Source: a virus (taxonomy: Duplodnaviria; Heunggongvirae; Uroviricota; Caudoviricetes). From it: a DNA stretch of 10,060 nt. The notes under the pieces are model-generated. The model worked only from the letters and a program-made list of their open reading frames with translations, was not told the origin of the DNA and searched no databases. The stretch is from IMG/VR virus record IMGVR_UViG_2695420540_000013, one strand, 5' to 3'. Below are positions 640-10,060 of this stretch, piece after piece (within the stretch, counting starts at the first letter, position 1; each line of letters starts with the position of its first letter). The position numbers and the translations under genes are program-made.

Positions 640-921
640 TTACCGCCGTAAGTGCTCCGGCTTCCTCCACTGGTAAGTATTTTTCGCGCTCTCCCTCCGT
701 TGTTGAGAACGGCGACGGTATGCCAGCAACTCAAGAACTCTGGTTCGTATGTTGCGCATATCCACGCCGTTAAGCTCAATACCGTCACGGCGCATTACCT
801 CATCCACCACACGCGCATAATTTTCAGCGGTCACGCTGTCCGGTTGCATGGCCTGTTCGTCAACCTGCTGGCTGATTCCGGCGACGCGGCGGATTAATCC
901 CAGTATTTCGGCTTCTGTCAT
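640..921 (-). CDS. Hypothetical phage-associated protein, 93 aa; function unknown (position downstream of capsid gene suggests a head-completion or packaging accessory role)
   Basis: ATG at 919..921 preceded by a GGGGG Shine-Dalgarno-like run about 4 nt upstream on the minus strand. Basic C-terminal tail. No family recognised. Confidence 0.5.
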   Translation of the reverse strand: MTEAEILGLIRRVAGISQQVDEQAMQPDSVTAENYARVVDEVMRRDGIELNGVDMRNIRTRVLELLAYRRRSQQRRESAKNTYQWRKPEHLRR

Positions 922-1149
922 TGTGCCCCCATCGCGCTGGTTAAGAAAACAAGCTCAGATTTTTTGTAAAGAATCTGTCACGCTAAAAGATGTCGAACAA
1001 AAATTAACCACAATCATCATCTTTTTTGCATCAACCACATTAAAAACAACAGGTTACACACATGATGATGATGACGATAAAACCACAAAAATGCGTTTTT
1101 TTCCGCGCCGACCCGCCCCGTGGACAGGCCCCCCCCACCAGGAGGACCC

Positions 1150-1179
1150 GCAAAAAAGGCGGCTGCTGCCGCCTTGTTC
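1150..1179 (-). terminator. Rho-independent terminator immediately after the protease-capsid gene stop
   Basis: Perfect 8-bp stem AAGGCGGC / GCCGCCTT (1156..1163 and 1168..1175) with a 4-nt loop; on the minus strand it is followed by a T6 run (complement of A1152..A1157). Sits 1 to 25 nt past the stop codon at 1180..1182. Confidence 0.6.
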
Positions 1180-8192: not shown

Positions 8193-8402
8193 TTACGCTG
8201 CCTTACCTGAATTAATGCGATCCCGGCTTTTAACCCATTCCATAACCTCGGACAGCAGCCAACCTACAGAACGCCCACCAAGATTACGGCGAGACGGAAA
8301 GCTCCCTTTTTTCTCCAGTTCGTAGCGTGTAGTGCGACACACTCCAGTTAACTTACGACATTCATCCTCACGGATTACGCGATCTTCATTTATTTCACGC
8401 AT
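8193..8402 (-). CDS. alpA: AlpA-family (Vis/excisionase-like) phage transcriptional regulator, 69 aa
   Basis: Matches the AlpA pattern by eye against E. coli AlpA (..TG..R.T.Y.......FP..R.LG.RSVGW...E...W..). ATG at 8400..8402 with AGGT upstream; the ORF track's longer form starts at a GTG (8489) with a poorly spaced RBS. Confidence 0.85.
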   Translation of the reverse strand: MREINEDRVIREDECRKLTGVCRTTRYELEKKGSFPSRRNLGGRSVGWLLSEVMEWVKSRDRINSGKAA

Positions 8403-8821
8403 ACAAAAACCTACATAAAAATTACGTATATAAACTTTTCTCTTAGCTGTAGATATATGAGATCGGATATTACTTAGATTCTTTTTCACCTCTTAAATTA
8501 AAAACACAACCATACTAAAGGCTTTGTTCGCTAAGGTTCGTAGAAGCTCGTTAGTGTTTAAAATCGTGTCACGAGTTTTTAAGCGACGCAACAAAAAATG
8601 TCGTCATTTGGCATGTCACCTGAATTACCTCATTAAAAACAAATAGATAAACCATCAGGTGTTGGAACAATCAAGAAACAGAGAATAAGAACTCAGAAGA
8701 AGACATTTCAATTTTTTTCGATAGTTGACACATATAAAGAGAAGATATTTGCAGATATTCCCCGATATTCTAAGATCTATTCACGGCTGTAATCTCTTAA
8801 AGAAAAAACAGCCGTAATTTG

Positions 8822-10060
8822 TCAAGAATTTTGGGGGTAAATTCGCGGGGTCATAACAACGATTTTTTCATCATTGTTCTGGAGAAGCTCGAGACGGTCT
8901 ACCCATAGATTAAGAGCGTCACGCTTTGCATCGAGATAACGGGAGTGGTTATAGACGCGTTGCATTCCTGGCATCTGGTGGGCAGTAAGCTGTTCGACAA
9001 TATGCGGATCCACGCCTAAATCGTTCAGCATGGTTGTAAATGTGTGCCGGATGTCGTGCAACGACCAGGGGGTTTGATTAATGCGTCTGTGTGCCGTTCT
9101 TCCGTACTCTGCTACGGATGATTGCCCTTTCAGTTCTCCAAGCAATAAGCCCGTGTGCCTGTTCTGCTCCACCAGCTTCATGACGAACGGCAAGATCGCT
9201 TCCGGTATTGGCCTGAATATTGCTACCTTCGTTTTGCTGTGTTCTTTCGGCACAGTCCAGAGCATTTCTTTAAAATCCCATTCCCGAACCTCGGAGCGTC
9301 TTAGCTCAGTGGTACGGCATCCGAAGACAATCAGAAGGCGAATTAAAGCGCTGTAGTACGGCGGGAAAATTTTTTCATCCAGTGCGCGGAGTAGCTCGCC
9401 AAGCTCCTTGTTTGTTAGCACTCGCTCGCTTATTTCTGCTTTTTTTCCCACATCACCTACGACCATATCATCAAGAACGTTACTGACGGCGTAGCGACGT
9501 TTACGGCAGTACTTAAGCGCCTGTTTGCATACCTGCAACAAAAAGCCGGCTGATACCGGATTACGCTTAGCAAGCTGGTCAAAACAGGCCAGCCAGTGGC
9601 GTAGCTCGCATTTATCCAGCGGCATAGCACCAATCTGGCTGATTATGTGCTTATTGATACGGCTTTTCAGTGATTCGTGGTCAGTGCGCTTTTCCTTCGC
9701 ATACGACTCAAGCCAGTAAGTGAGCGCGTCCTTAACCGTCACAGGGGCTAACGCTTCCTGCACTGTGTGATTAAGCTCATGGCGTGGATTTTTCCCCTCC
9801 GCCAGCCAGGCGCGACACTGTGCCGCTTTTTCCCTGGCTGCTTTCAGGCTCAGATCGGGATAGTTGCCCAGTCTCAGGCGTTCCGGTGATACCTGCCTGC
9901 CAGTTCCGGCCCTGTAAGTGAAATACCAGGTTAACAGGCCGCTGGTGGAATGTCTTACGCTAAGATTGCCACCGTCATTAAAAAAGGCGTTTTTTGTGGT
10001 TGGTGATCCGCTTAATTTTCGTAAAAGAGTGTCGCTAAGTCTATGAATTGCGCTGCTCAT
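8822..10060 (-). CDS. int: P4-type tyrosine integrase (site-specific recombinase), 412 aa
   Basis: N-terminal arm-binding-type region (FFNDGGNL ... LRLGNYPDLSLKAAREKA ... LAEGKNP, cf. P4 Int DGGGL ... LGVYPEVSLAEARKK); C-terminal catalytic region with HDIRHTF and a tyrosine in RVYNHSRYLD. ATG on the last 3 bases of the window. Confidence 0.92.
   Translation of the reverse strand: MSSAIHRLSDTLLRKLSGSPTTKNAFFNDGGNLSVRHSTSGLLTWYFTYRAGTGRQVSPERLRLGNYPDLSLKAAREKAAQCRAWLAEGKNPRHELNHTVQEALAPVTVKDALTYWLESYAKEKRTDHESLKSRINKHIISQIGAMPLDKCELRHWLACFDQLAKRNPVSAGFLLQVCKQALKYCRKRRYAVSNVLDDMVVGDVGKKAEISERVLTNKELGELLRALDEKIFPPYYSALIRLLIVFGCRTTELRRSEVREWDFKEMLWTVPKEHSKTKVAIFRPIPEAILPFVMKLVEQNRHTGLLLGELKGQSSVAEYGRTAHRRINQTPWSLHDIRHTFTTMLNDLGVDPHIVEQLTAHQMPGMQRVYNHSRYLDAKRDALNLWVDRLELLQNNDEKIVVMTPRIYPQNS

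Follow-up and report, generated by a model that had tools for sequence, protein, structure and literature searches.

A probable classical Gram-negative phage-inducible chromosomal island with a ClpP-protease/major-capsid fusion cassette at the cspD-clpS site

The window analysed here is a whole stretch of 10,060 nucleotides catalogued as a virus in IMG/VR (record IMGVR_UViG_2695420540_000013), and it holds an integrated satellite island. On gene content and attachment site we assign the island, with a probability of about 85%, to the classical rather than the capsid-forming Gram-negative phage-inducible chromosomal islands (PICIs), integrated at the attB between cspD and clpS. It is a cassette variant of a known Gram-negative PICI family at a published attachment (att) site, and its gene set is ordinary: the integrase, alpA, primase and single-stranded DNA-binding protein (SSB) genes, the iteron origin and the protease-capsid fusion, which an earlier reading without database searches (the sequence-only reading) had placed on one element, were all found within one att pair. 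That reading had also called the element a helper-dependent satellite, and this stands, since the island contains no portal, terminase or tail gene and these functions must come from a helper phage. Islands of this kind normally have a capsid gene, which is no proof that they build capsids of their own. By analogy, the product of the capsid gene most likely enters or competes in prohead assembly of the helper, through remodelling or interference, in the manner of the Ccm protein of SaPIbov5; that it makes up a whole head encoded by the satellite is improbable.

Boundaries and attachment site

Megablast against complete Escherichia coli genomes placed the window between clpS and yljB/cspD; it begins with the base directly after clpS and ends with the integrase start codon. 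In two relatives (L001, from E. coli O111:H8 7-58 72A, and L002) clpS ends just left of the window and is followed by clpA, so that the space where the sequence-only reading had looked for portal and terminase genes is occupied by clpS and clpA instead. Positions 1-91 are chromosomal flank outside the island (the clpS upstream region), identical in register to the yljB-clpS intergenic sequence of strain K-12 up to the 11-bp att core ATAACTATCAT at 92-102, which is the reverse complement of ATGATAGTTAT and forms the clpS-side junction. The empty K-12 site reads CATGATAG-ATAACTATCAT-CTATCGTTGG and has a single copy of the core; the window follows K-12 up to position 102, beyond which island DNA begins. 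The core is present once in the window. The att repeats that were to be sought by extending both sides are there: the relatives L001, L002 and L010 have a second copy some 175 bp to the right of the integrase start, after which the K-12 sequence continues. The island thus begins at about 92-103, ends some 185 bp to the right of the window and measures about 10.1 kb. The span of 640-10060 given earlier for the element holds its gene set, but the element starts at about 92-103. The added stretch, 103-640, contains a cos site and putative integrase arm-type repeats at 170-240 (ATTAACTACACC twice, and CACGAACAA-like repeats), the latter 80-87% similar to DNA beside the integrase-side junction in L001, L002 and L003. 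By this sequence evidence the capsid gene and the int/alpA/primase backbone are one element within a single pair of att cores. Both the core and the cspD-clpS site are identical to those of EcCIIHE3034 and EcCI18098, published as PICIs at cspD-clpS with the att core ATGATAGTTAT (Fillol-Salom et al. 2018, PMC6092414 Table S1), and the island also resembles these two in size class (10.5-10.8 kb).

A third copy of the 11-bp core occurs inside the L001 island (L001 19881), between the YlcI and alpA genes and beside a pseudogene fragment. This internal copy is not present in the window, and it could be a chance match or a trace of recombination. A tRNA scan found no tRNA in the window, and an Rfam search of the window and L001 gave no match inside the island.

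Comparison with known satellites

The layout of the island agrees with that of Gram-negative PICIs. The integrase gene is terminal and an alpA-type regulator gene comes next; most open reading frames (ORFs) run in one direction; the primase gene has an iteron origin directly 3' of it; a capsid homologue (1180-3060) lies downstream of the origin; the att site is a direct-repeat PICI att site, the size falls within about 8-12 kb, and no lysis or tail families were found with Pfam and PHROGs. Helper-type cos sites complete the set, cos2 by alignment and cos1 as read from a near-identical relative, L082. A small-terminase (TerS) or Rpp-type gene is missing and all other PICI core components are present; with one core component missing, SatelliteFinder would class the island as a 'Type B' PICI. 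The sequence-only reading took Gram-negative PICIs to be classically without a capsid gene, which is incorrect: 21 of the 29 reference Gram-negative PICIs have one (PMC10111431), capsid morphogenesis figures as core component iv in the PICI model of SatelliteFinder (PMC10085698), and c1499 of EcCICFT073 is a capsid gene in an island that also encodes a decoration protein (PMC6092414).

Capsid-forming PICIs (cf-PICIs) encode, in addition, a portal, head-tail connectors, HNH, TerS and a large terminase (TerL), and their prototype, EcCIEDL933, measures 15.4 kb (bioRxiv 10.1101/2022.09.08.507074; PMC10085698). With EcCIEDL933 the island shares a related backbone and the functions of a major capsid protein and a maturation protease of its own, here as one fused protein. 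In contrast, no portal, head-tail adaptor or connector, HNH, TerS or TerL gene was found inside the att-bounded ~10.1 kb (ORF list, Pfam, PHROGs, NCBIfam), and the size of about 15 kb is likewise a property of cf-PICIs only. The proposal that this is a capsid-forming satellite taking only tails from its helper is therefore not supported, the further genes that define that class being absent.

Comparison with individual islands narrows the differences to the morphogenesis genes. EcCIIHE3034 has an integrase gene 94% identical in DNA, the alpA, Icd-like, DUF4222, primase and SSB genes, a cos site after the SSB gene, and at the island end the gene of a conserved 93-residue protein (p93). Between SSB and p93, however, EcCIIHE3034 has a gpE-like capsid protein of 351 aa, a gpD-like decoration protein and a Nu1-like TerS, whereas the island in the window has a small protein (p75) and the fusion, an extra ST64B-type cos site and no TerS-like gene. 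EcCICFT073 (PMC6092414, PMC6739421) agrees with it in the order int-alpA-pri-ori, in a late-module capsid homologue, in cos1 and cos2, and in dependence on helper TerS and TerL, which is presumed for the island in the window. It differs in its att site, in a lambda E-like capsid protein, in its helpers (lambda and phi80, against phages with a fusion-type head) and in having RppA, of which no homologue was found here. Helper-embedded PICIs (HE-PICIs, PMC10111431) have been reported in genes A, B, C and E of their helpers (PMC10111431); sister islands with the same cassette likewise sit inside terL (gene A) of lambdoid prophages, whereas the window copy is chromosomal and has an integrase of other specificity.

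The protease-capsid fusion gene

The gene at 1180-3060 (minus strand) encodes a protein of 626 aa in which a ClpP-like prohead protease, a scaffold and a major capsid protein are fused, an assignment based on Pfam, NCBIfam, PHROGs and a profile comparison with the PDB. Its Pfam domains are CLP_protease (PF00574, 8e-33) and Phage_capsid_4 (PF25209, 1e-54); it scores 863 bits, against a cut-off of 475, with the NCBIfam model NF045540 ('ClpP-like prohead protease/major capsid protein fusion protein') and reaches 1e-272 with PHROG 133. The N-terminal part matches solved ClpP structures at 4e-15, and a profile of the C-terminal half matches the solved Mu-GpT-type capsid proteins 9jod, 8rkx and 8rkc at E ~2e-9. 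The capsid identity proposed from the sequence alone is thereby borne out, and by family membership the product is an HK97-fold capsid protein of the Mu GpT/Phage_capsid_4 type joined to a ClpP-like protease. The motifs AASMAS and MIHAP, which would hold the catalytic Ser and His as in E. coli ClpP, are invariant among the fusion alleles compared.

The best phage matches are proteins of CP-1639, Stx2a/Stx2d, VT1-Sakai, 1720a-02, mEp460, cdtI and similar lambdoid phages, which are 49-51% identical to the fusion over 99% of its length. The ratio of nonsynonymous to synonymous substitution (dN/dS) is 0.11-0.13 against satellite alleles that are about 10% divergent in DNA and 0.17-0.18 against a satellite clade of 63% identity; the satellite fusion alleles are intact and under purifying selection. 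On dN/dS and conservation, the fusion protein is to be regarded as functional and under selection. The satellite allele is present in 143 of 5426 complete E. coli genomes, many of them O157, O111 or O145, and the helper-type fusion gene in 2016 of the 5426.

Two characteristics separate satellite from phage alleles. First, among 109 fusion ORFs taken from all fetched loci, the 18 phage-type alleles all have a Pro/Ala/Thr-rich linker of 31-35 residues after the protease domain, whereas this linker has only 1-14 residues in the satellite alleles, which form three diverged clades; about 30 residues are missing, at a place that maps to residues ~205-212 of the window protein. Such a deletion would fit an altered assembly geometry. 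Second, the gene directly before the fusion gene is the portal gene in nearly all phage-type alleles and the p75 gene in nearly all satellite alleles; in the window the p75 gene (3057-3284, minus strand) ends in an overlap with the fusion-gene start. Between islands whose integrases and replicases differ, the DNA of the cassette, taken from p93 (640-921, minus strand) to p75, is about 88% conserved.

In L082 (IMGVR_UViG_2690316346_000015, 1-9991), which has a near-identical copy of window positions 448-4992, the fusion gene is split into two ORFs of 381 and 252 aa. A primase segment is inverted in the same record, and another fusion cassette, 61% identical and with DUF1441, is also present. 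This layout could reflect two adjacent islands or an assembly artefact.

cos sites and the masked block

The Rz-terS spacer is the usual place of lambdoid cos sites, and positions 954-1156 of the window are 85-87% identical to this spacer in Stx2 phages and VT1-Sakai. The predicted helper-type site, cos2, is a lambda-like cos region on the minus strand at 954-1170, with a hairpin and T-run at 1153-1170, a cosQ-like element (GCGGGTCCTCCTGGTGG) at 1141-1151 and a cosN-like element (ACGGGGCGGGTCGGCGCGG) at 1104-1121; the last two were read from an alignment with the lambda cos junction, and the region also aligns with the cos copies of L001, L002 and L003.

A second lambda-like site, cos1, probably lies in the N-masked block at 3500-3749 (minus strand), as read from L082 1245-1461; L082 is 99.5-99.9% identical to window positions 448-4992. 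At the position of the block L082 has a hairpin with a T-run, then GTAGGTACTCCTGGTGG (cosQ-like) and CCACGGGGCGGGCGGTTCGCGG (cosN-like), and it has no att core there. The stretch measures about 217 nt in L082, against 250 masked positions in the window, so that the two lengths are slightly discordant. A cos copy stands at the same position, between SSB and the capsid cassette, in L001, L002, L003 and L018, and L002 has a second cos copy after its capsid gene. The two lambda-like sites of the island mirror the functional cos1 and cos2 of EcCICFT073.

A site of a different type, of the HNH-dependent, HK97-like class, is suggested at 317-399 (minus strand). This segment shares 92-95% identity with the spacer that separates the HNH endonuclease gene from terS in SfII, ST64B and vB_EcoM-720R4. 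Against the phiP27 spacer the identity is 82%, and there the match covers the annotated 10-nt cos-site; the cleavage-site equivalent, at 347-356, reads TGCCAGCCCC in the window and CGCCCGCCCC or TGCCCGCCCC in the phages. Phages of the SfII/ST64B/phiP27 type have a packaging system unrelated to that of lambdoid phages and a capsid protein separate from the protease. The 336-bp segment with this site is found at >=80% coverage in 349 complete E. coli genomes; it is present in L002 and absent from L001 and EcCIIHE3034. With two unrelated cos types, the island may be packageable by two unrelated helper types. Just upstream of the site, in gene orientation, a scan for terminator-like structures gave a strong GC-rich hairpin at 421-446 (minus strand; 11 pairs, 8 of them GC) of putative function. 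No explicit description of a ClpP/capsid-fusion cassette or of mixed cos types in PICIs was found in the papers searched, and the word 'protease' is absent from the supplements of the 2018 PICI paper (PMC6092414).

Helper type

The phages whose capsid proteins match the fusion share the gene order DUF1441-type TerS, gpA-type TerL, a small W-like gene, portal and then the fusion gene. We propose, on these matches, that the helpers are lambdoid phages of the Stx/VT1-Sakai/CP-1639/mEp460/cdtI type, whose major capsid protein is a ClpP-protease fusion of the same kind. What appears to be the most direct pointer to this helper type comes from E. coli O157:H7 3-5-1 (L009 8940-21492), where an island with the same cassette sits inside terL of a lambdoid prophage. 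The embedded island has p75, a fusion 92% identical in protein to that of the window, and p93; the host prophage has a DUF1441 TerS, a portal and a fusion-type capsid gene of its own, the latter 54% identical to the window fusion. The same terL-embedded arrangement, which is the HE-PICI configuration described by the Williams group, was seen in at least 13 IMG/VR loci (L026, L029, L035, L040, L042, L044, L046, L048, L054, L068, L072, L076 and L077). We regard the morphogenesis cassette, consisting of cos1, p75, the fusion, cos2 and p93, as an exchangeable module that probably fits a single type of helper head.

The EHEC (enterohaemorrhagic E. coli) reference PICIs EcCI11128 (L011) and EcCI11368.1 (L012) were also checked for the fusion and have a TerS and a 307-aa 'phage major capsid protein' in its place. 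Theirs is a third type of cassette, which means that PICI backbones combine with at least three unrelated capsid cassettes.

Proposed life cycle and role of the fusion protein

A life cycle can be proposed by analogy with EcCICFT073. A lambdoid helper would turn on alpA, and the island would be excised by Int and AlpA. The primase/helicase and SSB would replicate it from the iteron origin into concatemers, which the helper terminase, composed of a DUF1441-type TerS and a gpA-type TerL, would cut at the lambda-like cos1 in the masked block and at cos2 (~1100-1165). The DNA would then be packed into heads built on the helper portal and joined to helper tails. Induction, packaging and the action of the capsid protein are all transferred from that model. 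For the fusion protein itself the best functional analogy might be Ccm of SaPIbov5, a cos-type satellite that likewise encodes a diverged homologue of its helper's capsid protein, and in which Ccm redirects helper capsid assembly (PMC8569155). Unlike the fusion, Ccm belongs to a Gram-positive system, has no fused protease, and its role was shown by cryo-EM, whereas the fusion is known from its sequence.

Several observations weigh against this interpretation. Deletion of the capsid homologue of EcCICFT073 changed neither interference nor transfer, and the island DNA was found in phage-sized heads (PMC6092414, PMC10111431). No gene of the TerS/Rpp type (DUF1441 or Nu1-like), such as the sister islands possess, is present in the window, and EcCICFT073 cannot be packaged without RppA, which is of this type (PMC6739421). 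The att junction on the integrase side falls beyond the window end, its core copy having been seen only in relatives, and the sequence of cos1 is masked in the window itself. Because a TerS/Rpp-type gene is missing here and is essential in EcCICFT073, this copy of the island may package poorly or use another factor, for example p75 or p93. The neutral deletion in EcCICFT073 also leaves a remodelling role for PICI capsid genes a hypothesis. At the same time, it is this neutral deletion, together with the phage-sized heads, that leads us to rank a classical cos-type PICI with a modulating or competing capsid homologue above the alternatives.

The finding is in one sense ordinary, as capsid homologues are a recognised PICI component. 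On the other hand, the one deletion test of a PICI capsid gene (in EcCICFT073) gave no phenotype, and the cassette is a cleaner system for asking what such genes do: the fusion is self-contained and under purifying selection, its linker deletion is constant, and the island is often embedded in a prophage with a homologous head gene. An effect on the yield or transfer of lambdoid phages of the Stx type is possible, since the islands are frequent in Shiga toxin-producing E. coli, O157, O111 and O145 among them.

Alternative interpretations

The strongest competitor, which we consider unlikely and which is a narrowed form of the proposal made in the sequence-only reading, is that the fusion is a dedicated shell protein: it would self-assemble on the helper portal into satellite-sized shells (e.g. 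T=4 or T=3), giving small heads that hold one or two island copies, with portal, terminase, connectors and tails supplied by the helper. The island would then be a 'shell-only' satellite between classical PICIs and cf-PICIs, and its two cos types could possibly allow packaging by two terminase systems. With protease, scaffold and capsid in one chain and the Ser and His motifs intact, the fusion is in principle a self-sufficient shell builder, and purifying selection acts on it. The satellite-specific clades, just 49-54% identical to the helper alleles, and the loss of the linker from every satellite allele, when 18 of 18 phage alleles keep it, point in the same direction. Yet the lack of portal, connector and terminase genes means that the helper portal and terminase would have to recognise a shell protein diverged by 50%. 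Among Gram-negative PICIs with a capsid homologue just one has been tested, and it uses phage-sized heads and can dispense with the gene.

Far less probable is a decaying prophage remnant, or a pair of adjacent unrelated elements, in which the capsid gene is a leftover. The capsid cassette is clearly of lambdoid late-region origin, and the terS-like gene of the sister islands is absent here, as decay would have it. However, the insertion is precise and bounded by one att-core pair; hundreds of genomes show this gene order, which also occurs with different integrases; the ORFs are intact, with dN/dS of 0.11-0.18; and the window has no tail or lysis gene fragments. The masked block, which the sequence-only reading had named as a place where an att site dividing two elements would refute it, corresponds to a cos site and not to an att site in the near-identical L082. 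These results largely refute both forms of the explanation.

A full cf-PICI with its portal and terminase genes outside the window would suit the backbone and the protease and capsid functions, but it has next to no probability left, being already refuted by boundaries (att cores enclosing the island, clpS/clpA to the left and yljB/cspD to the right), by an interior devoid of portal, adaptor/connector, HNH, terS and terL genes and by its length (10.1 kb, where the prototype has 15.4 kb), unless the island works with a second, unlinked element. Equally hard to credit is a P4-like satellite, for although the integrase, AlpA, the Icd-like gene and the P4-family primase C-terminal domain (TIGR01613 in NCBIfam) would suit one, the combination of int, AlpA and primase alone is common to PICIs and P4-like satellites (SatelliteFinder, PMC10085698) and does not discriminate between them, none of the window ORFs matched Sid, Psu, Delta or Epsilon (Pfam, PHROGs, NCBIfam), and the cos sites resemble those of lambda and ST64B, with lambdoid phages as the matching ones.

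The small cassette proteins and the TerS-type gene

In the classical PICI assignment that we prefer, the absence of a TerS-type gene is a peculiarity of this allele group. Sister islands have a DUF1441 gene between cos2 and p93 (window 922-1180 against L002 12921-13663), and the L002 protein is 48% identical to the helper phage TerS; the gene is absent from the window and from the allele group found in 143 genomes. Family searches with Pfam, PHROGs and NCBIfam identified none of the window ORFs as DUF1441, Nu1 or Rpp-like; the DUF1441 protein itself had no match in the PDB.

Apart from the fusion, p75 and p93 are the cassette's only conserved proteins. The p75 protein has a conserved core of 64 aa (phrog_4934, E 1e-46), its start is probably at 3251, and its gene adjoins nearly all fusion alleles found in satellite context. 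Its beta-alpha-alpha pattern bears a faint resemblance to ribbon-helix-helix DNA binders. The AlphaFold2 (AF2) model has a mean confidence (pLDDT) of 64.5, and Foldseek against the PDB gave no match below E=3, a match to SegB being non-significant. The p93 gene at the island end directly follows cos2, in the position that terS takes after a phage cos. The protein occurs in 51 related loci and in 967 protein clusters, all named 'hypothetical', and has no family in Pfam, NCBIfam or the PDB; its AF2 model (pLDDT 67.5) consists of three helices and, again, Foldseek found no PDB match below E=3. Sequence and profile comparisons of p93 and p75 with the PDB gave nothing credible, and a single QmcA/SPFH match at E 0.009 fell to 0.31 with a profile. 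The idea that the two are remnants of the helper TerL or portal was rejected, BLASTP showing no similarity. The deposit of a protein 99% identical to p93 (P0011) under the name 'MAG TPA_asm: hypothetical protein [Bacteriophage sp.]' shows that a virus set derived from metagenomes lists near-identical island DNA as phage.

Backbone genes and replication origin

All ORFs are on the minus strand except two on the plus strand. The tyrosine integrase (8822-10060, minus strand, 412 aa; Pfam Phage_integrase 1e-17, Arm-DNA-bind_3 1e-16) has its start codon in the last triplet of the window. It is followed by the AlpA-family regulator/excisionase (8193-8489, minus; PF05930, 5e-16), annotated at 8193-8402 in relatives, and by the two plus-strand ORFs, a short unassigned one at 7890-8078 (from the ORF list) and a YlcI/YnfO-family protein at 7542-7847 (NF041551, 2e-17). 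A minus-strand ORF of 272 aa at 7364-8182 was rejected as a gene; it overlaps the opposite-strand YlcI/YnfO gene and is unannotated in every relative. Further genes on the minus strand encode an Icd-like host cell-division inhibitor (7141-7344, coordinates from the L002 annotation; NF033153, 3e-19), a conserved hypothetical protein of 106 aa (6828-7148; phrog_15327) and a DUF4222 protein (6522-6821; PF13973, 2e-16).

The primase/helicase gene (pri-rep; 4735-6540, minus) has D5_N, DUF5906 and Pox_D5 domains, the 'P4 family' signature TIGR01613 and a match to phrog_864 at 2e-188; its start codon is probably the ATG at 6525. Directly 3' of it, at 4472-4694, lies the predicted replication origin, in which two opposed sets of CTGTTCACC iterons, with eight exact copies and two with one mismatch, surround AT-rich spacers. 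In the whole window CTGTTCACC matches 15 times against 1.8 expected, a count reached in none of 200 shuffles, and an iteron origin 3' of the primase gene is the layout described for Gram-negative PICIs (PMC6092414 Fig. 2 legend). Beyond the origin are a conserved protein of 81 aa (4175-4420, minus; phrog_1231) and the SSB of 140 aa (3756-4178, minus; PF00436, 4e-16; phrog_44). PADLOC found no defence families among ten small ORFs.

A second integrase-bearing island was observed in L001 (1-9200), on the far side of clpA, in the place that tRNA-Ser occupies in other strains. It carries YfjI/DUF3987 genes and a pseudogene of a TOTE-system primase, and a lone CRISPR-DR4-like repeat was detected by Rfam at L001 9133-9160.

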